NCBI GenBank assembly: GCA_963818965.1
Contig: CAWFUG010000010.1
Span: 1 to 64,000 of the forward strand
Length of the DNA: 64,000 nt
Source: an uncultured Verrucomicrobiae bacterium
Lineage (GTDB): Bacteria > Chlamydiota > Chlamydiia > Chlamydiales > Rhabdochlamydiaceae
Direction: 5' to 3'
Of this stretch, positions 12,941 through 33,815 are shown in pieces (within the stretch, counting starts at the first letter, position 1; every line of letters begins with the position of its first letter). Position numbers and translations under genes: made by a program. Under the pieces are notes generated by a model. It did not search any database. It was not told the origin of the DNA and saw only the letters and a program-made list of their open reading frames with translations.

Positions 12941-13122
12941 GAGGTTATTTTCGAGGATCGATATATATCGATCCTCGAAAATAACCAGCATTTCAGCTGC
13001 GTCAAAGCCGCCGAGATTCGACGATCGTAAGTTGGGTTGTATTGCATTATACTACCCAACTTACGATCGTCGATCTCGGCGCTTTCACGCGCTGAAATAC
13101 AGGTTATTTTCGAGGATCGTAA
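12941..13122. mobile_element. Palindromic MITE-like element (about 12964-13122) plus adjoining terminal remnant of a second copy (12943-12965)
   Basis: tatatcgatcctcgaaaataacc...ggttattttcgaggatcgta; core gctgcgtcaaagc/gctttcacgcgc; central gtattgcattatac; overlaps rnc 3' end. Confidence 0.75.
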
Positions 13123-13825
13123 TCCCCAAACGCTTCAAGGCATCTTCTGCCGCTGTCTGTTCCGCTTCCTTCTTGGAAGCCCCCGTTCCCTCTCCCGCCT
13201 CAGCCTCTCCAATCGCGACGGCGACCTGAAAGACTTTGCTATGGTCTGGTCCCATCTCTTTGATGATTTTATAAATCGGCGGTTTTTGGTATTTTTTCTG
13301 AGAATAGTCTTGCAATTCTGCTTTCCAATTGCGCAACGGCTCCTTCAAATAATCCTGAATCTTATTTTCAAAGTGCCTCAGCAGGAATTTGCGTGCGGCC
13401 TCTATTCCCCCATCCAAATAGATCGCTCCGATCAGAGCTTCGAAAAGATCTGCCAAAATCGTCTCTCGCCCGCGTCCATCGTTCATCCGCTCGCCTCGCC
13501 CCAACAAAATGAATTGAGCGATATCGAGCTGATTGAGCAGTGTGGCACAAGTGCTCGCATCGACCAAGTGTGAGCGCAAACTCGAAAGATGCCCTTCCGG
13601 CTCTTGCGGGAGCTGGATATAGAGATATTCTGAAATCAATATCCCCAAGACAGAGTCCCCTAAGAACTCCAATCGCTCATTGTGATGCTCCACGACCTCT
13701 CGATGCTCATTATAAAAAGAGCGATGGACAAATGCGATGGCAAGGAGTTGCCTATCTTGGAAAATATAACAAAGCCGCTCCTCGATGGAGCTTGCGTGTA
13801 AAATCAACTGTTGAAAAGGGTTCAT
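13085..13825 (-). CDS. rnc: Ribonuclease III
   Basis: NERLEFLGDSVL, ADLFEALIGAIYLD, dsRBD with GASKKEAEQ. Confidence 0.98.
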   Translation of the reverse strand: MNPFQQLILHASSIEERLCYIFQDRQLLAIAFVHRSFYNEHREVVEHHNERLEFLGDSVLGILISEYLYIQLPQEPEGHLSSLRSHLVDASTCATLLNQLDIAQFILLGRGERMNDGRGRETILADLFEALIGAIYLDGGIEAARKFLLRHFENKIQDYLKEPLRNWKAELQDYSQKKYQKPPIYKIIKEMGPDHSKVFQVAVAIGEAEAGEGTGASKKEAEQTAAEDALKRLGITILENNLYFSA

Positions 13826-13985
13826 AATCTACTATTTTTACCTAAAAGCCCAGTAAACAGCAAGCGCGCGAAGCACTAAAAAATAAATTTACACATTTTG
13901 CCATTTGTAAAAAACTCGAAAGGGCTCTATGATCGCCTATTCACATCTGAGAAAGCCCAAACCTAAGAACCTATTCAAGTAAAGT

Positions 13986-14669
13986 ATGCATTTCGCAATC
14001 AACTCCGACCACAAATCTTTTTTTCAAAAAAATCAATTCATTGAATTTGAAGAAATCTTCAGCTTAGAGCAACTCCACTCTCTGAAAAACACCATCGAAT
14101 TGACACTCCGTAAACGGATGCAGATGTCCTCCTCTCAGCTTAAGGCCACAACTGGGATCGATCTCTTCCGAGAAGGCTATGATTTATGGCGAGATAGTGA
14201 AAGTTTTCGAAAAATGACGCAAAAGCAAACCCTTTTAAATGTGGCAGCTGAGCTGTTTGACAAGTGGGAATTGCGCATCGCCTTCGACCAATACTTCTCA
14301 ACAGCAGGCTCGCAACGCTCCCCCCTAGAAAAGTCGTTTTCCCTACAGGAGATCTCTAGCTTAAAACCTCTGGCCGGCGCCTTCCTCATCCAGCTTAAAA
14401 GTTTAGAAGAGCCATTCGAAGCCTTTCCCCTTCCTCTCAAAGCGGGAAATGTCCTCTTTTTTTCCCCTGAACTCACTATCCCCTGGCCCCAACTATTTGG
14501 AACACCAGGTCTTTGCTTTCAAATCGTCGTCTTTGCTGAAGAGAAGACCATCTTCCAACATGGGACAATAGATCCTTATGCCCCTCAACTGAAAAAGCTC
14601 GGCTACGCCTTCGGCGACCATCTCCAAAATTCGCTCCATCCCCTAATATTAAGACGCAATCCAGCTTAG
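13986..14669 (+). CDS. Conserved chlamydial hypothetical protein (CT296-like position)
   Basis: 227-aa ORF divergent from rnc; FIEFEEIF and DLWR segments; family assignment is recollection, not a search result. Confidence 0.55.
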   Translation: MHFAINSDHKSFFQKNQFIEFEEIFSLEQLHSLKNTIELTLRKRMQMSSSQLKATTGIDLFREGYDLWRDSESFRKMTQKQTLLNVAAELFDKWELRIAFDQYFSTAGSQRSPLEKSFSLQEISSLKPLAGAFLIQLKSLEEPFEAFPLPLKAGNVLFFSPELTIPWPQLFGTPGLCFQIVVFAEEKTIFQHGTIDPYAPQLKKLGYAFGDHLQNSLHPLILRRNPA

Positions 14670-14802
14670 AGATTGTAGACAGACTCTTAGAACCTCCAGA
14701 AAATAAAATATTAAATTAAAATTAGTTTTACATTTCTTTTTTAATGAATTTATTATATAATTTAATTAAAGCTCAAGCTTTTATAAAACCAGGAATAAAA
14801 TT

Positions 14803-15801
14803 ATGCATTCTATACTTCCTCGCTCGATAAAAACTCCCTTCCCCCCTGAGTATGCGCTTCCCGTGCTGCTCGAAACGGGACATCTCCCCGCGATCTCTGA
14901 TCAACGCGCTTTAAGACTTGTCAACAAACAGTGGTGCGATCTAACCACAAAGACGATCGAATTCATGGATACGATTCGAGTAGGAACCGTTCGAGAATTT
15001 TTAATGATTTTTCAAAAGCAATTAGATGGAAATTTCCATGCAGAGGAAATTACACAGATTACAGCTTTGGGTCAAACCCTAGAAGAACGACGGGATAATC
15101 AGCCTCTCTTTGGACCCAGATGGCATGAGGCCATTATTGAAACCACCTTAAAAATTTCACTCAGTGCACTCGGAAAGACTCCATTCCGTTTCGCTGAGTT
15201 CAATATCGCTCCACATAGAGAAACTATACCCCGCCCGGTCAGGAATTGCGAATTTGAGCTGCGTGAAAGCTCCCGCGATTCCACGATCGAAAAGGGGGCC
15301 AGTATTGAGGAAATACAGGCCCCCTTTTCGATCGTGGAATCCCGGGGCTTTGACGCGCTCAAATTCGCAATTCCTGACCGGGCGGGGTATAGATTAATAA
15401 GAATTCCGATTTTCCCTCATCACTTATCTTGTCCTCAATCAGAATTCAAGAAAGTCTATTCCCAAATATGGAACGTAGCGACAGCGCCTGCAGATACTCT
15501 TTCTGAAATAAGTTTCCACACTATAGATAAATTAGAAGCCCTTGCCACAATAGGACATTTCAGAATCGCTCGAGTTGCAGTGCAGAGTTTTTTAGTAAGA
15601 CATAGAGAAAAACACGCTTCGTTAAATACTTTTTCCCTTGAAAAACGCCTCCTCATGACCATATCCTATCAAATGCATTCTAAAGGCGATGCCCAAGGAG
15701 CGCGTCAGATCCTTCTCAACTTCAACGCAATGCTCGCTGAGCAAGAAGAGTATCTCCGAAACGCTTACATTCCTTTGAAGCATTTCGATTCTCTTGCCTA
15801 G
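14803..15801 (+). CDS. Hypothetical protein with F-box-like N-terminus and an in-frame palindromic insertion
   Basis: AT-rich upstream region, AGGA RBS; FPPEYALPVL...LRLVNKQW resembles an F-box; 55 codons derive from the palindrome. Confidence 0.7.
   Translation: MHSILPRSIKTPFPPEYALPVLLETGHLPAISDQRALRLVNKQWCDLTTKTIEFMDTIRVGTVREFLMIFQKQLDGNFHAEEITQITALGQTLEERRDNQPLFGPRWHEAIIETTLKISLSALGKTPFRFAEFNIAPHRETIPRPVRNCEFELRESSRDSTIEKGASIEEIQAPFSIVESRGFDALKFAIPDRAGYRLIRIPIFPHHLSCPQSEFKKVYSQIWNVATAPADTLSEISFHTIDKLEALATIGHFRIARVAVQSFLVRHREKHASLNTFSLEKRLLMTISYQMHSKGDAQGARQILLNFNAMLAEQEEYLRNAYIPLKHFDSLA
15224..15392. mobile_element. 169-bp palindromic MITE/RPE-like element within a CDS
   Basis: ctataccccgcccggtcaggaattgcgaatttgagc...gctcaaattcgcaattcctgaccgggcggggtatag; same terminal family as 33738-33815. 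Confidence 0.88.
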
Positions 15802-15808
15802 GGCACAC

Positions 15809-17170
15809 TCAGTGCATTGAAACACTGCACTCCAGCGCCACCTCTTTTGCCAGTTGGATGCAGTGATCGACACTGACGCCGATGAGATAGTTTCCAACGA
15901 GGTGGCACCAAGGCATCTTTTCTCGACATAGCTGTCTTACAGCATGCATTTTTTCCAAATGACCGACCCTGTACTGAGGAATCGCTTCAGCAGCGCGCTT
16001 GAACGAGATCTCTTTGGGAAGAGCTGAAACACCTAATTGACGGCGGATCCCCTCTTGCGCCGCCTGTCGGTAAAATGCTTCCTCCTTTCCCGTCTCCTTC
16101 AATAAAATCGTGAGACGAGTTTCTTCCTCTCTCCGATTGTTTTTGGGAAAGAGGGAAGAATCGAAGATGCACCCCAAGACATCTTCCCGTTCAGAGGAAG
16201 GGATGAGATAACCAAAACCCTCTTGATTTAAGACCTTGGCATCATAGCCGCAATTGACGACGGTTAGCCCCACACAGGGCACTTGAGAGAGTTCTTTAGA
16301 GACAGAAGGGATGAACTTTTCCAATAAAGCCCCCGTGACGTGAACCGGTAAAGCACATAAGAGTATATCGGCAAAAAAGATCCCGCGATCCGTCGTGACC
16401 TTCACTTCTCCCCCTTCATAATCGATCGCCTTGACCTCTTGGCCATAATGGATTTGAGCTGGGATTTGATAGAGAAGCGATTGAGTGAGCATCTCCATTC
16501 CCCCGCGCAAAGAAAACAGTGCAGAAAGAGGAAGATCAGGAATTTCCGCTGAGAAGGGAGAGCGTTTTTTCTTCTCACGCGCGGTTTGAAAAAATCCCTT
16601 TGTGACAGATCCTGCTTGTTCTTCCCACTCTTTTAATTTAGGAAAACAAGCCTTGATCGAGATCTGCCTTGGATCTCCGCCGAAGATTCCGACCACCATT
16701 GGATCGAATAAAAGGCGCGCCACATCTCCATTAAAACGGCGCGCGACGAATTCCCAAACGCTCTCATCCCCTTTTTTGGCTGGTTTTCGCCATTCTGAAA
16801 GCAGTGCTGGGATTACCCCCTTAGTGATCGGAGAGAAGAAAAGGGAAAGAGGGTGTCTGGGCAAACGGTGGAGTTTTTGATCAGACCAGATGTAACGATC
16901 GGATGCTTCGGGAGAAGAACAGTGTATTTCTGCTTGCAAACCCAGCTCCTTGATCAATTGAATCAGAGCCGGCGACCGATCCACCTTAAAACTGCGCGGC
17001 CCCTTCTCAAAATGAAAACCAGTTGTTTGGTCCGTATCCATCCACCCACCGACTCGGTCCGTTTTCTCTACAATTGCAATCTCCAAAGGAAGTGAGGAGC
17101 GGCCTAAATACCAAGCCGCAGAAAGACCTGAGATCCCTCCTCCCAAAATAAGCACGCGTTTCTTTTGCAT
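15809..17170 (-). CDS. hemG: Protoporphyrinogen oxidase (HemY-type flavoprotein)
   Basis: GGGISGLSAA, FEKGPRSF, GFGYLIP, AIPQYRVGH. Confidence 0.95.
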   Translation of the reverse strand: MQKKRVLILGGGISGLSAAWYLGRSSLPLEIAIVEKTDRVGGWMDTDQTTGFHFEKGPRSFKVDRSPALIQLIKELGLQAEIHCSSPEASDRYIWSDQKLHRLPRHPLSLFFSPITKGVIPALLSEWRKPAKKGDESVWEFVARRFNGDVARLLFDPMVVGIFGGDPRQISIKACFPKLKEWEEQAGSVTKGFFQTAREKKKRSPFSAEIPDLPLSALFSLRGGMEMLTQSLLYQIPAQIHYGQEVKAIDYEGGEVKVTTDRGIFFADILLCALPVHVTGALLEKFIPSVSKELSQVPCVGLTVVNCGYDAKVLNQEGFGYLIPSSEREDVLGCIFDSSLFPKNNRREEETRLTILLKETGKEEAFYRQAAQEGIRRQLGVSALPKEISFKRAAEAIPQYRVGHLEKMHAVRQLCREKMPWCHLVGNYLIGVSVDHCIQLAKEVALECSVSMH

Positions 17171-17221
17171 GATTTACTGCCCTCAGATTATAGTCAGAGT
17201 AAAAAAAATTCTAAGGCAGCC

Positions 17222-18016
17222 GTGGATAAAATAAAAGAGCGGATCATCCCCTACCTCCAGAACCTGCGAGAGACAATTCTCGCAGCATTCGAGTCGTTCG
17301 AGCCTTCTCATCGCTTTGTGCGCACTCCTTGGAACTACCAAAAAGGATACGGCGGGGGGGAGATGGCAGTATTGCGCGGAGCAGTGTTTGAAAAAGCTGC
17401 CGTCAATTGGTCGGGCGTAGGGGGCGATCACTTCCCTATGGCCGATGGAACAGGCTCTTTTTTTGCGACAGGGGTCAGTTTGATCACCCACATGCACAAC
17501 CCCCATGCACCCACAGTCCATTTTAATATCCGCTTTATCGAAACAGAAAAACGGTTCTGGTTCGGTGGCGGTTACGATCTCACTCCTATGGGGCCTTCCT
17601 ATGCAGAAGACACCGCCCATTTTCATAAAATCGCCCAAGAAGCGCTCGATCCCTTTGGAGAAGAGCTCTATCCACAATTCTCCCAAAATGCAAAAGAGTA
17701 CTTCTTCATTCCGCATCGCCACAAAGAACGCGGCGTCGGCGGGCTCTTTTTCGATCACTACAATACGGGGGATTTCGAGCACGACTTTGCCCTATGGAAA
17801 CAGGTGGGAGATACCTTCCTCGAGGCAGTGCTCCCGCTCTATAAAAACCGCGTAGAAACGCCCTTTACAGAAGAAGAGAAGGATTTACAGTTACAGCTGC
17901 GCGCCCACTACGTCGAATTCAATTTGCTCTATGACCGAGGCACGAAATTTGGCTTTCAATCAGGCGGCAATCCCGAAGCGATCCTCTGTTCGATGCCACC
18001 GCTTGCTAAATGGTAA
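17222..18016 (+). CDS. hemF: Oxygen-dependent coproporphyrinogen III oxidase (start uncertain; GTG 17222 used)
   Basis: VFEKAAVN, NPHAPTVHFN, WFGGGYDLTP, RGVGGLFFD, YVEFNLLYDRGTKFG. Confidence 0.96.
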   Translation: MDKIKERIIPYLQNLRETILAAFESFEPSHRFVRTPWNYQKGYGGGEMAVLRGAVFEKAAVNWSGVGGDHFPMADGTGSFFATGVSLITHMHNPHAPTVHFNIRFIETEKRFWFGGGYDLTPMGPSYAEDTAHFHKIAQEALDPFGEELYPQFSQNAKEYFFIPHRHKERGVGGLFFDHYNTGDFEHDFALWKQVGDTFLEAVLPLYKNRVETPFTEEEKDLQLQLRAHYVEFNLLYDRGTKFGFQSGGNPEAILCSMPPLAKW

Positions 18017-18036
18017 ATTGTTTTTTAAACTTAAGC

Positions 18037-18054
18037 ATACCGAACGTGACTCAA
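18037..18054. repeat. Terminal remnant of the 26006-type palindromic element
   Basis: ataccgaacgtgactcaa identical to 26007-26024. Confidence 0.6.
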
Positions 18055-18175
18055 AAAATTCCCTCCAATACATTATAAATATTTATTTATTTGATTTTTA
18101 AATTAAAAAAATGTAACATAATACTTGTCAGATAACAAACTTTTCAACTTTAAATAAAAACAACTAGGTGACCAT

Positions 18176-19624: not shown

Positions 19625-19637
19625 AGGGATGTACTTT

Positions 19638-19675
19638 TTTCCATTCGAGATCGATTGGGGTCTCGAATGGGAATT
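19638..19675. terminator. Hairpin between convergent genes (probable terminator)
   Basis: ttccattcgaga...tctcgaatgggaa. Confidence 0.5.
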
Positions 19676-19701
19676 CGAGCCCTTTTTGATTCACTCGTCG
19701 C

Positions 19702-20706
19702 CTAAGACTTCACTGCCGCGACAAAAGCCTGTACATTTTCCAAAGGAATATCAGGAGTCACGCCGTGACCCAGATTGACGATGACCCCTCGAGCACCGTC
19801 TAGAGAAGAGAGCAGAGACTGGACTCCCGCTGTAATCTCTTGGGGAGAACTCTTGAGGAACGTAGGTTCGAAATTGCCTTGAATGGCAATTGCTTCAGGC
19901 ACCTTTTTTCTCAATTCAGCCATCGAGAGATGCCAATCGAAACTGATGCCAGTAGGTTTTAAGCGAGAAAGACTCTCATAACGGATGCTAGAGGACCGAC
20001 AAAAGAGAATGACGGGTGTCCCTGAGATGCCATCGAGAAGTCTTTTGAGATAGGGAAGACAGTATTCAGCAAATTCTGCATCGTCCAAGATATTAGCCCA
20101 AGAGTCGAAGATTTGGATCACATCTACCCCCGTGCGGACTTGCTCTTTGAGATATTCGAGGGTCACTTGCGTGATCTTGTCTAGAAGCAGATGAAAACTC
20201 TCCGGATCGCGAGCGATCCACTCTTTGGTATGCTGAAAAGCATGCCGGCTCGTCGAGTCGATCAAGTAACTGGCCACCGTAAAGGGTCCCCCACAAAAAC
20301 CGATGAGAGGAACGGAAATTCTCTGTTTGACAAGCGCAATCGATTCAAACACGAAAGAAAGCGTCTCTTTAACAGGCAATAAAGGCAGCTCTATCACTTG
20401 TTCTTTTGTTCGCAGCGGCGGAAAGAGCTGAGGCCCCATCCCCTCTGGGAATTCTAATCGGAACCCTAAGGCTTCAGCGATCACTAAAATATCTGAAAAC
20501 AAAATGGCTGCATCGACGCCGAGTAGTTGCAGCGGGAGATCTGTAATCTGAGCTGCGAGCTCTGGATGATGAAACATCTCCCAGAGCGTATGTCGTGCCC
20601 TCAGCGCACGGTATTGGGGCATGTAGCGCCCCGCTTGGCGCATCAACCACACGGGGGGTCTTGGGACATCCTCACAGCGCAGTGCTTTTAGGAGTAGATC
20701 GTTCAT
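19702..20706 (-). CDS. hemE: Uroporphyrinogen decarboxylase
   Basis: PVWLMRQAGRYMPQY, DAAILFSDIL, QIFDSWA, NLGHGV. Confidence 0.98.
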   Translation of the reverse strand: MNDLLLKALRCEDVPRPPVWLMRQAGRYMPQYRALRARHTLWEMFHHPELAAQITDLPLQLLGVDAAILFSDILVIAEALGFRLEFPEGMGPQLFPPLRTKEQVIELPLLPVKETLSFVFESIALVKQRISVPLIGFCGGPFTVASYLIDSTSRHAFQHTKEWIARDPESFHLLLDKITQVTLEYLKEQVRTGVDVIQIFDSWANILDDAEFAEYCLPYLKRLLDGISGTPVILFCRSSSIRYESLSRLKPTGISFDWHLSMAELRKKVPEAIAIQGNFEPTFLKSSPQEITAGVQSLLSSLDGARGVIVNLGHGVTPDIPLENVQAFVAAVKS

Positions 20707-20707
20707 A

Positions 20708-22693: not shown

Positions 22694-22781
22694 GTGCTAC
22701 AGCTCCTGTTCGCCTTAAAAATTAAGGATCATACAGAGAACAAAGAATATTTAGAAGGGGGGTGTGCGCTATTTGATGCTA

Positions 22782-22801
22782 TTTGAGTCCACTTGGGTAT
22801 A
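22782..22801. repeat. Terminal remnant of TATA-ended palindromic element
   Basis: tttgagtccacttgggtata, matches 6832-6851 and 26121-26140. Confidence 0.6.
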
Positions 22802-22835
22802 GCTCCCCCTCATTCCATTCTGAATATATGCAATG

Positions 22836-22899
22836 TCACCACAGAGAGGAAATTTTTTAATATGAATTCCCTCTCTGTGGTTTTCCATCTCTGTGATGA
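22836..22899. repeat. ACCACAGAG REP/BIME-like inverted repeat, copy 3
   Basis: tcaccacagagagg...ctctctgtggttttccatctctgtgatga. Confidence 0.8.
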
Positions 22900-22994
22900 A
22901 ATTCAGCTATTTAGGCAACAACGCCCCGGATTAGACAGTAAAGTATATTTTTAATTAACCTGAAACAAGCTTTTCCACAAAAATAAACTATAAA

Positions 22995-23023: not shown

Positions 23024-23068
23024 ATAATGTACGCCTTTTAAGATCAGCAAACAAAATAATGGAATAAA

Positions 23069-26047
23069 GTGTCGCTATTACATCACTTGAATTTAGACCC
23101 TACCTGTCGCCTAGACCAATACCTATCCCATGAAATTCTGCATCCCGAAGCAGCCGGGGACCCTCTTGTCGGATTTCACTTAGTAGAAGAATCTAAAAAA
23201 TTATTCGAATCCGCCACTAAAAAACTGAAAAGCACACTTTCCCTCCACAGCCTTATACCAGATCCTTTTTTGCATACCCTCTCCTACCTGACTCCTGTAG
23301 ACAGGAAAATTGCCCGTCTCGTCTGCCGCCACTGGAATAAAAGCTTAGAGCGAATCGCTCTCGAGGAAAAAAATGCTGAAATAATGAAGCACTTCGAACC
23401 CTTAAGAAAAACGTTAGGGCTTTTGAGAGAGCATTTTTCTGTTCATCCCCCCATCACTCCTATGTGCAACGGATTTATCGCTCAATTTTTAAGGGATATC
23501 TTGCCCGATAGAAAAGATGTGCGGTCTGTAGATGAAGTAAAGAGGCTAGAGGATAAGGCCCAATCAGAGATCGGGAACTTGTTACTCCTATTGGACGAAG
23601 AAGAACTCGCGGCTTTTTTACAATTTTCAAACTTCAGCAGAGACAGCCATTTAGCGAACTTGTTAGATTTCATCATAAAATGTGTACCTCTCTATAGAGA
23701 AGAAGAAAATGCCAGCGATGATATCCACTCTCTTCGCACTCTCGTGGATTGCCACCCTGCTTTTCCACTAGATGATCAGGATGAGATAGTAAAAGAACTA
23801 CAGAGGAGGATAGAGAAAGAGGCCAAAGAGGATAATCCCCTGCGCGCTGCCCAGTTGGCGATATTATATTCTGAAATACTGCCCCAAAAAACCTCTACCC
23901 AAGTGGACTTCTTAGAAGCCCTGAGCTGGCTATTAATCAAGAGGGGCTTTTTCATTCCTGGCAGGCAAATTGCGACGCTCTCGATTCAAGCGCGCCCTAA
24001 CTATTCCTTCCGTACCTGTCAGATCGCACAGAAGATCCAAGCTGAGGCACTAAAAGAGACCCAAAACGGCAATCCAACCCAAGCGGTCCAATGGGCCACA
24101 TTATATTTTCAAATACCGCCTCAGAAGGACGCTACCAAAGCAGCCCACTTAGCAACGATGAACTGGATATTAATCGACAGAGGGTTTTTCGTTCAGGCGA
24201 TGCAAATGATGACACTCTGCATTCAAGCCTACTCTGATCCCTTAGTCAAGGTGCGGGCGATCATGGGGCTCCACAAAAAATTATCAACACATCGAGGAGC
24301 AAAGGCTACGGCGGAACAGCTCTCCCAAGTTCCTGAATTCTATTGCAGAACAGTTATTGAATCAGAAAAACAGGAGTGGGGTCTGCGCACCTGTTTGACA
24401 ATCGCACAAGAATGTATCCTCATGGGACAAGACAATCATGTTTTTGCAAAAAGCCAAGAGGCTCTTTACTCGATTGGCCTTCGGTTAATCGATTTGATGG
24501 CGACAGATGCTTTAGGGATTTATAAAATGGATCCACTGACTCCTAACATAGACTTGAAATTTCCTCCAAAAACAGTAGAGATTTTTAAAAAGATAGGCTG
24601 CGCATTTGTTGAGAAAGGTTTTTTTAATGAAGCTGTCGACATCGCTGTCATCTGTGCTAAAACGGTTGTTAAAAGCGTACAGAAGACGCAAGCAATACGA
24701 GAAATCGGTGCAGCATTGATCAAAAAACAAGGAGCTTCTGAACAAGTCCTTCAAATCACTGAGATCTGTTGCAAAATGGCCACCAAGGCCGATGTGGAAG
24801 ATTGGATGCAAGCCCTCTTTGATATGATCTCTATAGCAGATAAGGCAGGAAATTCCGCTCTTGCAAGTGATATAGTGACTCAAGCGTTGACCCTTAGCTT
24901 ATCTGGGAGAAATTTTGAAGGAAAAACAAAGGTCCTGTTTAACCTGTTAAAGCACCTTGCAGCGTGCCATATACTGGACGGCAATTTCGTCGAAGCACGG
25001 CACTATTTTGAGAGCCTGCGGCCTATTGCAGATACGAGAACACAGATCCAAGTGCTCAAAGATTTAGTGGAAACACACATTACAAGTGCTTCCTTCCAGG
25101 ATGAAGAAATCGAGAACTACTCTCCTGAAAAGGCATACGCGCTGTTTCGGCAACAACTTCCCACCCTTCTAGAACAACTCTATGAAAATACTCAGGATTT
25201 TGAAGACTTTTACTCCAAGGATGTCTTTTACTTCTTCCCCCTTCTTTTTGAAATGGAAGAAATGGGACTAGCCCAGGAACTGATGGAAAGAGCCCTCATT
25301 ATTGTTCATCAAAAACACACAGAAGACGAACTATTTTTGGATGAGATTTTTAATAATGAGTTCTTTTCTCTCCTTTGCCAGATGGGAAAGGAGGAACGGG
25401 CCAGAGAATTGATGGATCTAGTCATTGCGACTCTTCACAAGAATTATCCTAAGGGTGAAAAATTTTGTAATGAGCTCTTTAAGCGAGACATCTTCTCCCA
25501 CCTTTGTAAAATGGGAGATTTGGGACAGGCCAGAAAATTGATGGATCAAGTCGTTGCAATCCTTCGTCAGAAACACCCTGAAGACACAAAATTTTTTAAT
25601 CAGCTCTTTGAGCAAAAGATCTTCTCCCACCTTTTTGAGATGAGAGATTTGGTGCGAGCCCAAGAATTAATGCAGCAAGCCCTTACAACTTTCCGTCAAA
25701 AATACCCAAGAGACGACAAGTTTTTCGAAGCGCTCATTAAGCAGGGTGTTTTTGTACAGCTTTGCGAAATAGGAGATACCGCTGAAGCGATCCGTCTGTT
25801 TAAAACAATGCCTACAAATTTTGCTCCAAGAGCCGTGCATAAGCATAACAACGGTCTAAAATCTATAGCATACGAGTTAATGGAAGCTGTCGATCAAACA
25901 GGGGGAGCTGGTGAAGAGCCCTTGCATAGAATCTTAGAGATTTGGGAAATGCTCATTAACGATCCAGACAAAACAAGATTAATAGAACTAGTAGGAAGCT
26001 GGAGATATACCGAACGTGACTCAAGAATCGGGATTGGGCCGATGTGA
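23069..26047 (+). CDS. F-box-like / helical-repeat protein, paralog 1 (putative secreted effector)
   Basis: IPDPFLHTLSYLTPVDRKIARLVCRHWN is F-box-like; duplicated ~78-aa module; about 4 copies of a 43-aa repeat. Confidence 0.8.
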   Translation: MSLLHHLNLDPTCRLDQYLSHEILHPEAAGDPLVGFHLVEESKKLFESATKKLKSTLSLHSLIPDPFLHTLSYLTPVDRKIARLVCRHWNKSLERIALEEKNAEIMKHFEPLRKTLGLLREHFSVHPPITPMCNGFIAQFLRDILPDRKDVRSVDEVKRLEDKAQSEIGNLLLLLDEEELAAFLQFSNFSRDSHLANLLDFIIKCVPLYREEENASDDIHSLRTLVDCHPAFPLDDQDEIVKELQRRIEKEAKEDNPLRAAQLAILYSEILPQKTSTQVDFLEALSWLLIKRGFFIPGRQIATLSIQARPNYSFRTCQIAQKIQAEALKETQNGNPTQAVQWATLYFQIPPQKDATKAAHLATMNWILIDRGFFVQAMQMMTLCIQAYSDPLVKVRAIMGLHKKLSTHRGAKATAEQLSQVPEFYCRTVIESEKQEWGLRTCLTIAQECILMGQDNHVFAKSQEALYSIGLRLIDLMATDALGIYKMDPLTPNIDLKFPPKTVEIFKKIGCAFVEKGFFNEAVDIAVICAKTVVKSVQKTQAIREIGAALIKKQGASEQVLQITEICCKMATKADVEDWMQALFDMISIADKAGNSALASDIVTQALTLSLSGRNFEGKTKVLFNLLKHLAACHILDGNFVEARHYFESLRPIADTRTQIQVLKDLVETHITSASFQDEEIENYSPEKAYALFRQQLPTLLEQLYENTQDFEDFYSKDVFYFFPLLFEMEEMGLAQELMERALIIVHQKHTEDELFLDEIFNNEFFSLLCQMGKEERARELMDLVIATLHKNYPKGEKFCNELFKRDIFSHLCKMGDLGQARKLMDQVVAILRQKHPEDTKFFNQLFEQKIFSHLFEMRDLVRAQELMQQALTTFRQKYPRDDKFFEALIKQGVFVQLCEIGDTAEAIRLFKTMPTNFAPRAVHKHNNGLKSIAYELMEAVDQTGGAGEEPLHRILEIWEMLINDPDKTRLIELVGSWRYTERDSRIGIGPM

Positions 26048-26104
26048 AAACTCCCCCGGGGTTCGACATGGCCCAATCCCGATTCTTGAGTCCCGTTCGG
26101 TATA
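26006..26104. mobile_element. 99-bp TATA-ended palindromic element overlapping the paralog 1 stop
   Basis: tataccgaacgtgactcaagaatcgggattgggcc...ggcccaatcccgattcttgagtcccgttcggtata. Confidence 0.85.
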
Positions 26105-26119
26105 AGCTGGGAAGCCAAG

Positions 26120-26140
26120 TTTTGAGTCCACTTGGATATA
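26120..26140. repeat. Terminal remnant of TATA-ended palindromic element
   Basis: ttttgagtccacttggatata. Confidence 0.6.
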
Positions 26141-26161
26141 GACAGGTGCCGAATCTGGCAC

Positions 26162-26482
26162 CGAACAAACTGTAAATCTTTTTAAAACAGGAAAACAAGT
26201 AAATATTTTACTTACACGCTACTCCCGCAAGGCAGCGGGGGGGCCTCCTACCTATGTCCAATCGCCCATTTTTGGTATAACCCTCTTTAATCCAATCAGT
26301 TAAGGGAAGCTAGTAAAGCAATTAATTGAAACCCTCCCACTGAAAGCTCCCTCCGGGGGCGCAATCTGTTCCATTATGCTTCTGACAAAAATAAACTACA
26401 AATTGACGCAAAATTAAAAACCAAATACAATTATAGACATATTATTAATACGTAACAAGAAAAATTAACACGGGAAAATAAA
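26162..26482. repeat. Duplicated upstream region of paralog 2 (second copy about 30272-30594)
   Basis: Near-identical gaacaaactgtaaat...ctactcccgcaaggcagcggggg...aattgacg blocks. Confidence 0.9.
26403..26431 (+). promoter_or_regulatory. Sigma70/sigma66-type promoter of paralog 2
   Basis: TTGACG-17 nt-TACAAT. Confidence 0.72.
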
Positions 26483-29400
26483 GTGTCCATATTAAATCAC
26501 TTAAATTCAGAACCAAACTATTCTGTATACCAAAACCTATCTCGCCACATCCTATCCTACTTGGATCAAGACTCCCAAAGAGCGGTGGCCTGTGCCGGCA
26601 GTGGATTGAACCAACTCGCCACACTCCACTTGGCAGAAGATGTTAAAGAATTATTTTACACTACCATTAAAGCACTGAGAAAAAAAACCGCCTCCCATGA
26701 ACACAGATCCGATACTTTTTTGCATATTCTCTCCTTTCTGAATTCTCTAGATAGGAGAATTGCCCACTGCGTCTCCCATCACTGGAATCACAGCTTGGAT
26801 CGGTTAGCGCTCGAGGAAAAAAACACTGAAATCCGTAAGCACTTCGAACCTTTAAGAAAAACGGTGGGGCTTTTGGAAGAGCATTTTTCGCTTCACCTCA
26901 ACATCTCTCCTGAGCGTAAGGCGTTTATCGCTGCGACTTTAAAGGACCTCTTGCCGAGCAGAAAAGACGTGAAAGATGTTGCTGACGTAAAGGCGCTTGA
27001 ATACTTCGCGCAATTAGGTATCACGAACTTATTGCGATCATTGGACGAAAAAGAGCTCGCGGCTTTTTTACAATTTTCAGACTTCAGCAGGGATAACGAT
27101 TTAGCGAAATTTTTAGATCTCATCATAAAATGCGCACCTCTCTATGGAGAAGATGGAAGTGCCAGGGATGATAGCGGCTCTCTTCTGGCTATCTTGGACT
27201 GCGATCCTTATTTTCCACTGGATGGTTTTTCTCCGATAACACAGGAGATACAAGATAGGGCAGAGAAAGAGGCCCGAGAAGGCGATCCCGTCCGAGCTGT
27301 CCAGTTGGCCACAGTATATTCTGAAATGCTGTCCGAGAATTACTTTATCAGGGCAAACCGATTGGCAACGATGAGCTGGTTATTAATCGAGAGGGGGAAG
27401 TTCGTCCCTGGTATGCAAATTGCGACACTCTGCGTTCAAGCAGTCCCCGAACACTTAGTGAATTATTGGAATCCCATAGAACGGAAAATACAAGAGGGGG
27501 CAGAGAAAGCGGCCCGAGAGGGCAATCCCAACCAAACTGTCTGGTTGGCTACATTATATTCTGAAATAACGCCTAAGGTTGACTATACCGGGACCAAGGG
27601 AAACCACTTGGCAACGATAAGCTTTCTATTAATCGAGAGGGGATTTTTCGATGCTGGCATGCAAATTATAACACTCGGCATTCAAGCGACCCCTAACCAC
27701 TTACTCAAAGTGCGCACGATTGAGGACTTCTATATTTCATTGGCACAGCAAGGAGGAACGGAGGAACAACTCTCCCAAGTCACTAAATTCTATTGCAGAA
27801 CAGTAATTGAAGCAGAGAAAAATGGGTGGAGTCTGGATGATTGTTTGCACATCGCAAGAGCGTGTGAGCGCATGGCGATTTGGTCCGGGGCCTTTGTAGA
27901 AAGGGAAGAGGCTCTTTGGTCGATTGGCGTTGGGTTAATCCAGCAGTTTGACATTTTTAGAACGGACCCACTGGATCCTTACAGCTCCTTTGAACTTGAT
28001 CCAACAACAGCGAAAATTTTTCAGACAATTGGCTGTGTATTTGTTGAGAAAGGTTTTTTCAATGAAGCTGTCGACATCAGTGTAATCTGCGCTAAAACGG
28101 TTTTTAAAGGCCCAGAGAAGGCGCAAGCAATAGGAGGGTTGGGTAACGTATTAGTGAAACAAGGAGCTTCTGAACACGTCCTTCAAATCGCTGAGATCTG
28201 TTGCAAAATGGCCACCGCAGCCGATCTGCAAGATTATCTTGAAGCCCTCTGCGATATGATCCTTATGGCAGATGATAAAGGGAATCCCGCTCTCGGCAGA
28301 GATATCGCTCATCAAGCGTTGACCCTCTCATTGAAGAAAAGTGAGCAGGAACCTCTGTTCAACACCTTAGAGAGCCTTGCATTTCGCCATTTGAGAAACG
28401 GCAATTTTCAGGAAGCGCTCCACTATTTTGAGAGCCTGTGTCCTCTTGCAGATACGAGAGAACAGATTAAGAGCCTGAAGGATTTAGTAGAAGCCTATCC
28501 CAACAACCCTCCGCCTGAAAAAGTATACGCATTTTTGCGGCAAGAGCTGCCTGTTTTTTTGGAACAACTCTATGGAGACGATCGGGCTTTTGAAGAATTT
28601 TACTCCGCAGACGTCTTCTCCCTCTTCCCCCTCCTTCTTGAAATGGGAGAAATGGGACTAGCCCAGGAATTGATGGAAAGAGCCCTCATTATTGTTCATC
28701 AAAAACATACAGAAGACGAACTATTTTTGAATGAGATTTTTGATAATAAATTCTTTTTACTCCTTTGTCGCATGGGAAATGTGGAACGGGCCAGGGAATT
28801 AATGGATCTAGTCATTGCGATTCTTCGCAAGAACTACCCTGAGGACGAAAATTTTTGCTCTCAGATCTTTCGGCGAGACATCTTCTTCCACCTTTGTAAC
28901 ATGAGAGATGTAGGACGGGCTAGGGAGTTAATGGGCCAAGTCCTTACGATGCTTCGTCTGCAATATCCTAAGGATACAAAATTTTGCTCTCAGATCTTTC
29001 GGCGAGACATCTTCTCCCACCTTTGTAACATGAGAGATGTAGGACGGGCTAGGGAGTTAATGGGCCAAGTCCTTACGATGCTTCGTCTGCAATATCCTAA
29101 GGATACAAAATTTTGCGATCAGATCTTTAGGTGCAACATCTTCTCCCACCTTTGTAACATGAGAGATGTAGGACGGGCCAGAGAATTAATGGATCAAGTG
29201 ATCGCGATTTTTCGTGAGAAATACCCTGAGGACAGAAAGTTTTTTAGTCAGCTCTTTGAACGGAAGATCTTCTCCCACCTTTGTAAAATGGGAGATTTGG
29301 TACGAGCACAGGAATTGATGAATCAAGTCATTACAACTCTCCGTCAAAAACATCCGAAAGACAACGAATTTTTCGCAGCGCTTGTTAATCAGGGCGTTTT

Positions 29401-30058
29401 TGTTCATCTTTACGAAATGGGAGATATCGATGGAGCTATCCGTCTCTTTGAAACAATGCCAGCAGACTTTGTCCCTAACCGAACAGACGTGCGCAAGCAC
29501 AATAAAAATTTAAAAGAAATTGCTCTCGAATTACGGATTGATTTCGAATTAATGGAAAACAATAGATCTGTGTCTGAAGAATCTGTGCATAGAATCTTGC
29601 AGATTTTAGGAATGCTCATCCGCGACCCAGATAAAAAAAGGTTAATAAAAAAAGTAGAACGCTTGCAGAAACGGAAATTGATGAATCAAGCCGTTACAAC
29701 TCTCCGTCAAAAATATCCAAAAGACAACGAATTTTTCGCAGAGCTTATTAAACAGGGTGTTTTTGTACAGCTTTGCGAAATCGGAGCTGTCGACAAAGCT
29801 TTCCAGCTCTTTGAAACAATGCCAGCAGACTTTGTTCCTGACAGCGTGCGCAAGCATAATAAAAATCTAAAGAAGATTGCGCTCGAATTAATGGAAAACA
29901 AGAAATCTGTATCTGAGGAGTCTAAGTATAAAATCTTACAGATTTTAGGAATGCTCATTGAAGATCCAGATAAAGAAAAGTTAATGAAAAAATTACAGCA
30001 CTTCAAGCTTGGGGGCGGCTCTTCGTCTGAATCTTCATCTTCATCTGACTCTGACTAA
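26483..30058 (+). CDS. F-box-like / helical-repeat protein, paralog 2
   Basis: Two F-box-like motifs; about 6 copies of the 43-aa repeat; duplicated C-terminal module; Ser-rich tail. Confidence 0.82.
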   Translation: MSILNHLNSEPNYSVYQNLSRHILSYLDQDSQRAVACAGSGLNQLATLHLAEDVKELFYTTIKALRKKTASHEHRSDTFLHILSFLNSLDRRIAHCVSHHWNHSLDRLALEEKNTEIRKHFEPLRKTVGLLEEHFSLHLNISPERKAFIAATLKDLLPSRKDVKDVADVKALEYFAQLGITNLLRSLDEKELAAFLQFSDFSRDNDLAKFLDLIIKCAPLYGEDGSARDDSGSLLAILDCDPYFPLDGFSPITQEIQDRAEKEAREGDPVRAVQLATVYSEMLSENYFIRANRLATMSWLLIERGKFVPGMQIATLCVQAVPEHLVNYWNPIERKIQEGAEKAAREGNPNQTVWLATLYSEITPKVDYTGTKGNHLATISFLLIERGFFDAGMQIITLGIQATPNHLLKVRTIEDFYISLAQQGGTEEQLSQVTKFYCRTVIEAEKNGWSLDDCLHIARACERMAIWSGAFVEREEALWSIGVGLIQQFDIFRTDPLDPYSSFELDPTTAKIFQTIGCVFVEKGFFNEAVDISVICAKTVFKGPEKAQAIGGLGNVLVKQGASEHVLQIAEICCKMATAADLQDYLEALCDMILMADDKGNPALGRDIAHQALTLSLKKSEQEPLFNTLESLAFRHLRNGNFQEALHYFESLCPLADTREQIKSLKDLVEAYPNNPPPEKVYAFLRQELPVFLEQLYGDDRAFEEFYSADVFSLFPLLLEMGEMGLAQELMERALIIVHQKHTEDELFLNEIFDNKFFLLLCRMGNVERARELMDLVIAILRKNYPEDENFCSQIFRRDIFFHLCNMRDVGRARELMGQVLTMLRLQYPKDTKFCSQIFRRDIFSHLCNMRDVGRARELMGQVLTMLRLQYPKDTKFCDQIFRCNIFSHLCNMRDVGRARELMDQVIAIFREKYPEDRKFFSQLFERKIFSHLCKMGDLVRAQELMNQVITTLRQKHPKDNEFFAALVNQGVFVHLYEMGDIDGAIRLFETMPADFVPNRTDVRKHNKNLKEIALELRIDFELMENNRSVSEESVHRILQILGMLIRDPDKKRLIKKVERLQKRKLMNQAVTTLRQKYPKDNEFFAELIKQGVFVQLCEIGAVDKAFQLFETMPADFVPDSVRKHNKNLKKIALELMENKKSVSEESKYKILQILGMLIEDPDKEKLMKKLQHFKLGGGSSSESSSSSDSD
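28853..29190 (+). repeat. Near-perfect 129-bp (43-codon) intragenic tandem repeat
   Basis: Units start at 28853, 28982, 29111; the first two differ at one visible position. Confidence 0.93.
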
Positions 30059-30071
30059 TATTAAGGGCAAG

Positions 30072-30109
30072 TTTGACCGTGGGGCGCTGCGAAAGCTCCC
30101 ACGGTCAAA
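30072..30109. repeat. 38-bp hairpin after paralog 2 (element-derived, possible terminator)
   Basis: tttgaccgtggggcgctgcgaaagctcccacggtcaaa; identical at 33696-33733. Confidence 0.75.
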
Positions 30110-30270
30110 TATACCACTTCCACCTCAATCGTAACCAAGAAACCCGAATGAAAAGTTCTCAAAATTCGAATCAAAGGTCGGGATTAATATTAAATTCAAT
30201 ATTGCCCCGACCTTTGATTCGAATTTTGAGGCTTTTATACCCCCCGCGCTTGAGGTGGAAGCACTGTATA
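30110..30270. mobile_element. 161-bp TATA-ended palindromic element
   Basis: tataccacttccacctcaa...ctcaaaattcgaatcaaaggtcggg...cccgacctttgattcgaattttgag...ttgaggtggaagcactgtata. Confidence 0.78.
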
Positions 30271-30514
30271 ACGAACAAACTGTAAATTTTTCTTTAAAAA
30301 CAGAAAGACAAGTAAATGTTTTACTCGCACGCTACTCCCGCAAGGCAGCGGGGGGCCTCCTACCTATGTCCAATCACCCATTTTTGGTATAACCCTCTTT
30401 AATACAATTAGTTAAGACAAGATAATGAAGCAATTAATTAAAACCCTCTCCCTGAAAGCTCCCTCCGGGGGCGCAATCTGTTCCATTATGCTTCTGACAA
30501 AAATAAACTACAAA

Positions 30515-30543
30515 TTGACGTAAAATTAAAAACCAAATACAAT
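30515..30543 (+). promoter_or_regulatory. Sigma70/sigma66-type promoter of paralog 3
   Basis: TTGACG-17 nt-TACAAT. Confidence 0.72.
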
Positions 30544-30594
30544 AATAGAAACATTATTAATATGTAACATTAAAAATTAACACAGGAAAGCAAA

Positions 30595-33417
30595 ATGTCC
30601 ACATTAAACCATTTAAATTCAGATCCAAACTACTCTGTATATCAAAATCTATCTCGCTACATCCTATCCCACTTGGATCAAGACTCCCAAAGAGCGGTGG
30701 CCTGTGCCGGCAGTGGATTAAACCAACTCGCCACACTCCACTTGGCAGAGAATGTTAAAGAATTATTTTACGCTGTCATTAAAAAACTGGGAAAAAACCC
30801 CTCCTCCCATGAGCACAGATCCGATACTTTTTTGCATATTCTCTCCTTTCTGAGTTCTCTAGATAGGAGAATTGCCCACTGCGTCTCCCGCCACTGGAAT
30901 CACAGCTTGGATCGGTTAGCTCTCGAGGAAAAAAACGCTGAAATCAGTGAGCACTTCGAACCTTTAAGAAAAACGGTGGGGCTTTTGGAAGAGCATTTTT
31001 CGCTTCACCCCAACATCTCTCCTGAGCGTAAGGCGTTTATCGCTGCGACTTTAAAGGATCTTTTGCCGAGCAGAAAAGACGTGAAAGATGTAGCTGATGT
31101 AAAGAAGCTTGAATACCCCACGCAATTATCTATGACGAACTTATTGCGATCATTGGACGAAAAAGAGCTCGCGGCTTTTCTACAATTTTCAGACTTCAGC
31201 AGGGATAACGATTTAGCGAAATTTTTAGATCTCATCATCAAATGCGTACCTCTCTATCGAGAAGGGAGAGCTACTGGGGATGATATCGGCTCTCTTCGCG
31301 CTATCTTGGACTGCCGTCCTTATTTTCCACTGAATGATTATTCTCCGATAACACAGGAGATACAAGATAGGGCAGAGAAAGAGGCCCGAGAAGGCGATCC
31401 CGTCCGAGCTGTCCAGTTGGCCACAGTATATTCTGAAATGCTGTCCGAGAATTACTTTATCAGGGCAAACCGATTGGCAACGATGAGCTGGTTATTAATC
31501 GAGAGGGGGAGGTTCGTCCCTGGTATGCAAATTGCGACACTCTGCGTTCAAGCAGTCCCTAAGCACCTATCATGGAATCCGATAGCAGAGAAGCTACAAG
31601 GTGAGGCAGAGAAAGCGGCCCGAGAGGGCAATCCCAACCAAACTGTCTGGTTGGCTACATTATATTCTGAAATAACGCCTAAGGTTGACTATACCGAGAC
31701 CAAGGGAAACCACTTGGGAACGATAAGCTTTCTATTAATCGAGAGGGGATTTTTCGATGCTGGCATGCAAATTATAACACTCGGCGTTCAAGCGATCCCT
31801 AACCACTTACTCAAAGTGCGCACGATTGAGGGCTTCTATATTTTATTGGCACAGCAAGGAGGAACGGAGGAACAACTCAGACAGGTTGAAGACTTCTATT
31901 GCAAAACCGTCATTGAAGCAGAAAAAAATGAGTGGAGCCTGGATGATTGTTTGAAAATCGCAGACAGGTGCTATGGGTACTCCGGAAGCGAAGAGGCTCT
32001 TTTGGCGGTTAGCATTAGATTAGTCAACTGCATCAGGTCAGATAATCCCAGCATTTATAAAATGGCTCCACTGCCTACTTCTGTAGGACCAGTGCTTTTT
32101 AAAAAAATGGTCGAGGCACTTGTTGACAAAGGTTTTTTCAATGAAGCTGTCGACATCGCTGTCATCTGTGCTAAAACGCATTTTGGAGCCTACTGGATAA
32201 AAGCAAACATAATACGAGATATCGGTAAGACATTAATAAGAAAACAAGGAGCTTCTGAACAAGTCCTTCAAATCGCTGAGATCTGTTGCAAAATGACCTC
32301 CGAGGCCAATCTGCAAAATTATCCTGAAGCCCTCTGTGATATGATCCTTATGGCAGATGATGAAGGGAATCCCGCTCTTGGGAGAGATATCGCTCTTGAA
32401 CCGTTGACCCTCAACTCATGGAAGAAAAGCGAGCTGCAAGCTCTGTTCAACATCTTAGAGCGCCTTGCATTTCGCCATATGAGAAACGGCAATTTTCAGG
32501 AAGCGCTCCACTATTTTGAGAGCCTGCGTCCTCTTGCAGATACGAGAAAACAGATTGAGAGCCTGAAGGATTTAGTAGAAGCCTATCCCAACAACCCTCC
32601 GCCTGAAAAAGTATACGCATTTTTGCGGCAAGAGCTGCCTGTTCTTTTGGAACAACTCTATGGAGACGATCGGGCTTTTGAAGAATTTTACTCCGCAGAC
32701 GTCTTCTCCCTCTTCCCCCTCCTTCTTGAAATGGGAGAAATGGGACTAGCCCAGGAATTGATGGAAAGAGCTCTCATTATTGTTCATCAAAAACATACAG
32801 AAGACGAACTATTTTTGAATGAGATTTTGTTTTTTGATGATAGATTTTTTTCGCTCCTTTGTCGCATGGGAAATGTGGAACGGGCCAGGGAATTAATGGA
32901 TCTAGTCATTGCGATTCTTCGCAAGAACTACCCTGAGGACGAAAATTTTTGCTCTCAGATCTTTCGGCGAGACATCTTCTTCCGCCTTTGTAAAATGGGA
33001 GATTTGGTACGGGCTAGGGAGTTAATGGGCCAAGTCCTTACGATGCTTCGTCTGCAATATCCTAAGGATACAAAATTTTGTAATCAAATCTTTGATAAAA
33101 ACATCTTCTATCACCTTTTTAACATGAGAGATTTGGAACAGGCCAGAGAATTAATGGATCAAGTGATTGCGATTCTTCGTCAGAAATATCCTGAGGACAG
33201 AAAATTTTTTAGACAGATCCTTAAGCATAATACCTGCTCCACTCTTTCTAACATGGGGAATTTGGTACAAGCACGGGAATTAATGAACCAAGCTATTACA
33301 ACTCTCCGTCAAAAACATCCAAAAGACAACAAATTTTTCGCAGCGCTTATTCAGCAAGAAGTTTTTGTACAGCTTTGCGGAATCGGGGCTGTCGATAAAG
33401 CTATCCAGCCTCTTTGA
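30595..33417 (+). CDS. F-box-like / helical-repeat protein, paralog 3 (C-terminus frameshifted; homology continues to 33682)
   Basis: Long stretches identical to paralog 2; about 5 copies of the 43-aa repeat; +1 C near 33410 causes an early TGA. Confidence 0.78.
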   Translation: MSTLNHLNSDPNYSVYQNLSRYILSHLDQDSQRAVACAGSGLNQLATLHLAENVKELFYAVIKKLGKNPSSHEHRSDTFLHILSFLSSLDRRIAHCVSRHWNHSLDRLALEEKNAEISEHFEPLRKTVGLLEEHFSLHPNISPERKAFIAATLKDLLPSRKDVKDVADVKKLEYPTQLSMTNLLRSLDEKELAAFLQFSDFSRDNDLAKFLDLIIKCVPLYREGRATGDDIGSLRAILDCRPYFPLNDYSPITQEIQDRAEKEAREGDPVRAVQLATVYSEMLSENYFIRANRLATMSWLLIERGRFVPGMQIATLCVQAVPKHLSWNPIAEKLQGEAEKAAREGNPNQTVWLATLYSEITPKVDYTETKGNHLGTISFLLIERGFFDAGMQIITLGVQAIPNHLLKVRTIEGFYILLAQQGGTEEQLRQVEDFYCKTVIEAEKNEWSLDDCLKIADRCYGYSGSEEALLAVSIRLVNCIRSDNPSIYKMAPLPTSVGPVLFKKMVEALVDKGFFNEAVDIAVICAKTHFGAYWIKANIIRDIGKTLIRKQGASEQVLQIAEICCKMTSEANLQNYPEALCDMILMADDEGNPALGRDIALEPLTLNSWKKSELQALFNILERLAFRHMRNGNFQEALHYFESLRPLADTRKQIESLKDLVEAYPNNPPPEKVYAFLRQELPVLLEQLYGDDRAFEEFYSADVFSLFPLLLEMGEMGLAQELMERALIIVHQKHTEDELFLNEILFFDDRFFSLLCRMGNVERARELMDLVIAILRKNYPEDENFCSQIFRRDIFFRLCKMGDLVRARELMGQVLTMLRLQYPKDTKFCNQIFDKNIFYHLFNMRDLEQARELMDQVIAILRQKYPEDRKFFRQILKHNTCSTLSNMGNLVQARELMNQAITTLRQKHPKDNKFFAALIQQEVFVQLCGIGAVDKAIQPL

Positions 33418-33695
33418 AACAATGCCAGCAGACTTTGTTCCGGACAGAAGTGTGCAAGCATAATAAAAATCTAAAAGAAGATTGCGCTCGAATTAATGGA
33501 AAACAAGAAATCTGTATCTGAGGAGTCTTAGTATAAAATCTTACAGATTTTAGGAATGCTCATTGAAGATCCAGATAAAAAAAAGTTAATGAAAAAAGTA
33601 CAGCGACTTGGAGAAACGTGTGAAGCCCAAGCTTCGGGGCTGCTCTTCGTCTGACTCTACCTCTTCATCTTCATCTGACTAATATTAAGGGCAAG

Positions 33696-33733
33696 TTTGA
33701 CCGTGGGGCGCTGCGAAAGCTCCCACGGTCAAA
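33696..33733. repeat. 38-bp hairpin after paralog 3
   Basis: Identical to 30072-30109. Confidence 0.75.
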
Positions 33734-33737
33734 TATA

Positions 33738-33815
33738 TATACTGCGCCCGGTTAGGAATTGCGAATTTGAGAGCGTCAAAGCTCAAATTCGCAATTCCTA
33801 ACCGGGCGCAGTATA
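33738..33815. mobile_element. 78-bp TATA-ended palindrome, short relative of the 15224 element
   Basis: tatactgcgcccggttaggaattgcgaatttgag...ctcaaattcgcaattcctaaccgggcgcagtata. Confidence 0.85.

Follow-up and report, generated by a model that had tools for sequence, protein, structure and literature searches.

A 64,000-nucleotide stretch of DNA from an uncultured bacterium of the chlamydial family Rhabdochlamydiaceae (GenBank assembly GCA_963818965.1, contig CAWFUG010000010.1, positions 1 to 64,000 of the forward strand; hereafter the window) carries several copies of a long hairpin repeat. Judged by their sequence, these repeats are miniature inverted-repeat transposons (MITEs), non-coding and non-autonomous, and the likeness of their ends to those of insertion sequences (ISs) suggests that they are mobilised in trans. 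Each element appears to be built from two modules, an outer pair of transposase ends of ~26 bp and an inner palindromic cassette of ~110 bp that has three fixed unpaired positions. Our main finding is that one cassette probably sits between the ends of several clades of IS630 and of ISAzo13, as if it had exchanged ends to switch enzymes, and we put the probability of this reading at roughly 0.78.

A hairpin family with a conserved cassette

The source genome (G000; 2.24 Mb, 88% complete, with the window as its contig C10) contains 65 full-length copies of 151-173 bp and many deletion remnants. A genome-wide scan for hairpins bounded by TA gave 137 matches, against none in 521 kb of shuffled sequence, and 115 of these remain once a separate family of CCACAGAG repeats is removed. 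Searches with the end sequences gave 350 matches in 207 clusters, many of which are internal deletions that have kept both ends. The elements are short, lack a transposase gene, are present in high copy number and end in terminal inverted repeats, as MITEs do, and the proposal in a preliminary description of this DNA that they form a non-autonomous mobile family whose enzyme is encoded outside the window holds. That description took the arms of the different copies to be unrelated. The 65 full copies can be aligned over their entire length, arms included, which makes the arm types diverged forms of a single design, and their ends are homologous to IS ends.

The asymmetric core with a bulge and G.G and C.C mismatches, which was also noted at that stage, is a constant feature of the cassette. 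Among 81 copies with the long half-site, the G.G mismatch is present in 75, the bulged T in 71 and the C.C mismatch in 75, and most of the neighbouring positions pair in 90-100% of these copies; the conservation estimates come from copy sets that were selected by the core motif. Covariation in a larger set, which had been proposed as a check, is pronounced: in an alignment of 31 copies taken from 10 genomes, both partners have changed in 57 of 67 pairs, and pairing is found in 93.7% of the cells. None of 500 shuffles reached this level, and slid registers pair at 36-46%; kinship among sequences can by itself outdo such shuffles, yet the difference here is large. The covariation goes further inwards than any transposase end and includes the inner stem. 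Perfect stems are no longer than 36 bp in 63 of the 65 copies, which fits the idea that mismatches are kept as palindrome breakers.

IS630 ends and the TA duplication

IS630 elements duplicate a TA target, and their transposition is a DDE reaction on double-stranded ends. An IS630 transposase locus of another genome (L150; NF033545, genome G095) is bounded by repeats that are 22/26 identical to one arm type of the source genome, and the ends of its metagenomic relatives gave best matches of 23-24/26 for four arm types. The 80 relatives yielded 31 end pairs, four doubtful pairs were dropped and the comparison set comprised 96 IS630 ends. Against this set the window copy at 26006 scored 21/24 and 20/24, the copy at 30110 scored 19/24 and 18/24 with another IS630 clade, and intact copies of the 12964 type scored 18-19/24 with a third; in a random control, 18/24 or more was reached by 1 of 300 windows. 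The suspected kinship with IS630 is thus borne out by end matches for the 26006, 6772, 30110 and 12964 types. In genome G312, the ends of an IS630 element (DDE_3 plus HTH) are 25/26 and 22/26 identical to those of a cassette-bearing copy in the same genome, and MITEs there directly abut IS ends with a TA in common. TAGT-type ends of cassette copies match further IS630 clades.

A 2-bp TA duplication had been predicted for the family, and two copies bear it out. Of 76 copies tested for empty sites, five lie in repeats that have empty paralogues, and two of the five show a clear duplication, with a single TA at 16/16 empty sites for C9:411822 and at 45/47 for C12:47355. None of the IS630 loci screened contained the cassette motif, and the element is therefore not a simple internal deletion of those ISs. 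No cassette-bounded transposase occurred among 183 loci, which included one adjacent IS630 only. Candidate partners within the source genome were rejected: its DDE_Tnp_1 transposases have unrelated ends at the two loci examined, and eight long pairs of arms with a transposase between them turned out to be accidental combinations of separate copies. At a separate IS630 locus (L152, G110:C1:395911-399369), a transposase gene at 740-2152 lies between perfect inverted repeats of ~110 bp that resemble the halves of another hairpin MITE, possibly a case of transposase capture inside a MITE.

ISAzo13 ends around the same cassette

TATA ends had been regarded as common to all copies. They are not universal, as other genomes carry the same cassette between TAGTAC (TAGT) or TAAGG/TAGG ends. 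All 18 cassette-bearing TAAGG/TAGG arms scored 17-20/24 against 20 ISAzo13 ends (NF033519), a score reached by 27 of 10,969 genomic controls and by 4 of 81 controls that passed the same motif filter. A direct TAA or TTA repeat is present in 11 of the 14 TAAGG/TAGG copies with both ends readable. The spacing between end and cassette is 34-36 bp in ISAzo13-type copies, the same as in IS630-type copies. Within one genome, a copy with ISAzo13 ends (L078) and a copy with IS630 ends (L111) have cassettes that are 92% alike and arms that are 31% alike. A tree was built of 85 cassettes, after 3 of 88 rows had been omitted as unclassified and five labels put right by eye. The ISAzo13 label must change 10 times on it, and well-supported (starred) branches force five or more of these changes. 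IS630 and ISAzo13 are paired with different eukaryotic superfamilies in the text available of PMC5718144.

End types can also hold other interiors. The end type of the 15225 copy encloses unrelated cassettes, at 164-183 bp, in other genomes, where at least four further cassettes lie within such ends (L345, L347, L353, L356, L360 and L363).

Several observations weigh against the picture of MITEs that are moved by IS transposases and exchange their ends. The end type shared by the copies at 15225 and 33738 scored 14/24 against the 96 IS630 ends, which is background, and searches for its partner gave other MITEs or chance matches only; no IS end that matches the 15225 copy was found. Three of the five copies with empty paralogues gave ambiguous sites. 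No intact DDE_3, NF033545, ISAzo13 or L150-like transposase was found in the 88% complete source genome, whose sole IS630 trace is a decayed remnant (C9:237650-237900), and IS630 was likewise not found in the element-rich genomes G127, G156 and G032. DDE_3 is present in 25/50 genomes that have the element and in 22/72 that lack it, and this co-occurrence does not single out IS630. A direct 3-bp repeat flanks three of six complete ISAzo13 elements, the same-genome match to an ISAzo13 end is just 17-18/26, and none of the hybrids seen combines an IS630 end with an ISAzo13 end. The cassette tree is built from 73 non-independent palindromic columns, and its bootstrap is not settled.

Copies in the window

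The preliminary description had listed five full elements, at 12964, 15225, 26006, 30110 and 33738. All five are there and fold as long hairpins, but those at 26006 and 33738 are internal-deletion derivatives and the right arm of the 30110 copy is damaged. The seven remnants of that list are present as well, and the one at 6801 falls inside 6772-6851, a derivative with both ends. The DNA fold of the 15225 copy has a free energy of -96.7 kcal/mol (z = -22.4), a stability equalled by none of 200 shuffles. The elements and the reading frame that encloses the 15225 copy are as follows (coordinates, strand, feature; ORF, open reading frame).

6772-6851, +, deletion derivative with both ends kept; right end 21/24 to an IS630 end
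12941-12965, no strand assigned, right end of an earlier copy of the 12964 type, which it abuts with a TA in common
12964-13122, -, full-length copy, 159 bp, one end degenerate
14803-15801, +, ORF of 332 aa with no Pfam family that reads through the 15225 element
15225-15391, +, full-length copy, 167 bp (net 165 bp = 55 codons), in frame within ORF 14803-15801
15225-15250, +, left terminal inverted repeat including the target TA, mirrored at 15366-15391; length estimated from IS630 ends
15261-15280, +, long half-site of the cassette, which bears the bulged T
15338-15356, -, short half-site of the cassette
18036-18056, +, left-end remnant of the 26006 type
22782-22801, no strand assigned, right-end remnant of the 6772 type
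26006-26104, +, internal-deletion derivative, 99 bp; ends 21/24 and 20/24 to IS630 ends
26117-26140, no strand assigned, right-end remnant; 20/24 to an IS630 end
30072-30109, no strand assigned, small hairpin with a cassette half-site, duplicated along with tandem genes
30110-30270, +, copy of an AT-rich subfamily with a damaged right arm; ends 18-19/24 to a second IS630 clade
33696-33733, no strand assigned, second copy of the small hairpin
33738-33815, -, internal-deletion derivative, 78 bp, with the end type of 15225

Several of these copies touch genes. The 12964 copy supplies the stop codon and the last ~12 codons of the RNase III gene (13085-13825, - strand), the 26006 copy contains the stop of ORF 23069-26047, and the derivative at 6772-6851 overlaps the stop of the PTS EIIA gene (6826-7530). 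Three tandem paralogues of 940-1191 aa with 129-bp internal repeats occupy 23069-33417, each followed by an element copy; they give weak F-box-like (two of the three) and TPR-like matches, which are typical of host-directed proteins.

The second, unrelated family of CCACAGAG doublets forms 104 hairpins genome-wide and often serves as a target of the TA elements. In the window it is found at:

5159-5211
10801-10924
22853-22912
40281-40424
43517-43638
49320-49420
54160-54305
56544-56611

Further hairpin families of the source genome have other ends and cores, several of them also at 160-165 bp (C11:96890, C11:347445, C12:8653, C1:238140, C2:66785, C11:18446, C1:312616 and C1:37905). At C4:11243-11628 there is a 386-bp palindrome whose 135-bp arms consist of the end of a multicopy DDE_Tnp_1 element; it is either real or an assembly fold-back. 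At C8:61892-62344 (L202), an element arm pair surrounds a small multidrug resistance (SMR, PF00893) gene and may represent the capture of a passenger.

Coding insertions

A multiple of three bases is added by 48 of the 65 full copies. Eleven of the 65 are flanked on each side by 40 or more codons of open frame, six in one orientation and five in the other, and the remaining 54 are not. The insertions into coding sequence that had been likened to Rickettsia palindromic elements (RPEs) are real, with copies in frame in aroA, rlmD, menC and other genes. Eight proteins with in-frame copies were scanned, and six match families: AroA, RlmD, MenC, WbuC, the sulfate-permease (sulP) type and a leucine-rich repeat (LRR) family. 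The aroA orthologues of two relatives are without the inserted stretch; the rlmD copy gave no clean gap when aligned with a distant paralogue, and no empty orthologue of ORF 14803-15801 was found among 40 relatives. Individual copies have on average 1.69 open frames of six, against 0.42 in shuffles. The aroA gene with the insert (C11:117260-118732, L197) is itself 34-36% identical to the aroA of four relatives, one of them of the same genus, which suggests horizontal gain.

How the arms may stay matched

One question is how a hairpin could acquire new ends and still have two matching arms. We suggest that the outer ~26 bp on each side would be bound as a double-stranded DDE substrate by a transposase acting in trans, of the IS630 family in the source genome and of the ISAzo13 family for some copies of other genomes, and that insertion would then produce a TA duplication (IS630 type) or a TAA/TTA duplication (ISAzo13 type). 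The inner ~110-bp palindromic cassette would be handed between end types. Copies may recombine through their common half-sites or land beside an IS end, and the product would be a hybrid whose two ends differ; template switching or gene conversion may then copy one arm onto the other, restoring a symmetric element with new ends. Arm-to-arm copying would make both arms change together. Such copying is in keeping with the correction of quasi-palindromes. The instability of a perfect 80-bp palindrome is the most likely reason why the three fixed mismatches have been retained; they hold perfect stems to 36 bp or less, and lengths that add whole codons would let copies reside within genes.

The source genome contains five hybrids that bear two different ends. 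All but one of the 31 paired cores are asymmetric, the exception being fully symmetric, and the apical loop has one orientation relative to the core in 14 of 25 cases and the other in nine. Hybrids, loop inversions and the single symmetric copy are the marks that we would expect from recombination and template switching between arms.

Alternative explanations

One possibility is that the cassette is functional, its half-sites or an extruded cruciform being recognised by a host protein or by the transposase and aiding end pairing of the 165-bp element. Such a function would be the reason why unrelated ends keep acquiring the cassette; it is compatible with the exchange of ends and adds a function to it. 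The half-sites are far more conserved than the arms across families of the phylum, and of 51 matches selected on the short half-site only (truncated ones included), 27 had the long half-site motif upstream. The identity of the mismatches is fixed and the distance from end to cassette constant, and the fixed mismatches may have a structural role. Against this, symmetric and core-less deletion derivatives occur, and cassettes of unlike sequence serve the same ends; the sets from which conservation was judged were picked by core motif, and recent horizontal spread would also conserve the half-sites. We consider a function of this kind conceivable but rather improbable. An extension of the idea is that the cassette is a general adapter, which repeatedly adopts the ends of its host's DDE transposase family, mirrors the new end by template switching, is kept for the job that its fixed unpaired bases or half-sites perform (as a host-factor site or a cruciform that aids end pairing) and has a length that keeps frames open. 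We offer this extension tentatively, as a speculation with odds clearly below even.

A less probable explanation is that selection acts on an RNA hairpin, the double-stranded RNA being cut by RNase III or ending transcription and so making insertions tolerable or regulatory. There is a precedent, in that RNase III cuts transcripts carrying Correia elements according to the part of PMC10969869 at hand, and both the covariation of the inner stem and the several copies that overlap stop codons would suit an RNA role. Outside the core, however, G.T mismatches (87) and A.C mismatches (83) are equally frequent when oriented by the core rather than by transcription, and thus give no sign of RNA wobble pairing. 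Moreover, in-frame copies occur in both orientations, and arm-to-arm copying accounts for the covariation without selection.

It is improbable that a single ancestral MITE gave rise to all the types as its ends drifted stepwise to different transposases, with no swapping. IS630 ends of different clades are mutually related, the arms of the source genome form a graded series, and end labels are clustered on the cassette tree beyond chance (0/500 shuffles as low), all of which speak for gradual drift. It does not sit well with near-identical cassettes whose arms are at background identity in one genome, nor with a duplication length that changes with the end class and ISAzo13 ends that fall in at least five separate places on the tree.

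Finally, the preliminary description favoured recognition as a folded single strand, in which an HUH (REP/RAYT-like) enzyme or one of integron type would cut the fold, reading its extrahelical bases, and move the cassette alone. This is very unlikely: the bulge and mismatches are fixed, Y1 transposases occur in 4/4 other element-rich genomes tested and are somewhat enriched in element-positive genomes (32/50, against 28/72 negative ones), but no Y1 transposase was found in the source genome, none of 11 Y1 loci is bounded by the cassette, attC R boxes are present in 0/65 copies, nearly all of 46 unpaired half-sites follow an arm (by eye) with no free cassettes seen, and both the match to DDE transposase ends and the target duplications point to a DDE enzyme. 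The co-occurrence counts cover 122 genomes outside family f20, in which kin are not independent, and are weak for both enzyme classes; the choice of DDE over Y1 is made because of end identity and target duplication. Y1 transposase genes at five loci (L468, L471, L474, L476 and L469) are flanked by short REP-like hairpins of their own, unrelated to the cassette.

Distribution

A covariance model of the element has matches in 51 of 150 genomes from the phylum. These are spread over many families, with 0/27 in family f20; the model also scores other long hairpins, and its weak matches are not all of this family. The long half-site occurs in at least 112 stretches of species genomes. Among the 80 matches listed for it, 50 are chlamydial and 27 are Verrucomicrobia or Acidobacteria by record title, and five of the records with non-chlamydial titles measure 1.4-2.1 Mb. 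BLAST of copies against plasmid and phage collections gave no match, and viral contigs gave 2 and 1 motif matches, which is chance-like. Three soil sequencing runs contain ~6% of the sequence words and showed no joints, and no RNA run was among those listed, which is evidence neither way.

Relation to known elements

Two types of enterobacterial element, ERIC (RU-1) and YPAL (RU-2), come close in kind. As described in the accessible sections of PMC2759123, they likewise have TA ends, a TA duplication, a long stem-loop and frame fusions, and YPAL has the same length as the chlamydial element, at 167-168 bp. Kinship with ERIC was rejected, as the covariance model misses the one E. coli copy tested (L015) and the local similarity is matched by 25 of 100 shuffles; by sequence, ERIC and the chlamydial element appear to be of the same kind and not of the same family. 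RUP of Streptococcus pneumoniae, in the portion of PMC3049150 that covers it, has a length of 107 bp, is AT-rich and goes with a single IS, IS630-Spn1. It resembles the chlamydial element in being short and non-coding, with IS630-like terminal repeats, target duplication, strong secondary structure and many copies, whereas the chlamydial element is 164-170 bp and palindromic nearly throughout, and its one cassette occurs with ends from ISAzo13 as well as from several clades of IS630. RPEs, as presented in the same part of PMC10969869, are likewise palindromes of ~150-170 bp in frame in unrelated housekeeping genes; the chlamydial element differs in that its mobilising enzyme family can be identified from its ends and 54 of 65 copies are not deep in a long frame. 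With IS630 (NF033545) and ISAzo13 (NF033519) it has terminal repeats and target duplication in common but lacks the transposase gene. REP/RAYT, REPIN and integron attC hairpins have conserved unpaired bases, as it does, but unlike them it lacks attC boxes, does not bound Y1 genes and has a target duplication.

A match to a described IS-derived MITE had been raised as a possible outcome. In kind that is what the element is, but no described family matched. Rfam gave nothing at gathering score for positions 6000-35000 of the window, with sub-threshold microRNA hairpin matches only. A chlamydial family of this hairpin-MITE kind is absent from the available portions of PMC3184786, PMC11602168 and PMC3733652, and the second of these mentions, in that portion, MITEs with common ends and differing interiors, not the reverse. 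The literature search, whose scope lay outside subscription journals and ISfinder, gave no description of the family or of a cassette common to different end types, and an automatic catalogue entry may exist. The IS630-type MITE is an already known kind; the swap of ends across families around one cassette is the new part.

MITEs are usually regarded as shrunken copies of one parent IS and are named by their ends. In the chlamydial family it is the interior that would last, and the ends that would be traded between two transposase families whose target duplications differ. If true, this would explain how a non-coding element can outlive the loss of its enzyme and spread across a phylum, and the formation of a hybrid followed by arm-to-arm copying would be a route by which paired changes arise in such hairpins. 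Were the adapter idea also to hold, it would be the core and not the ends that defines this mobile element. The RPE-like insertions into proteins are tied here to a named enzyme family, and what moves such palindromes thereby becomes a testable question.

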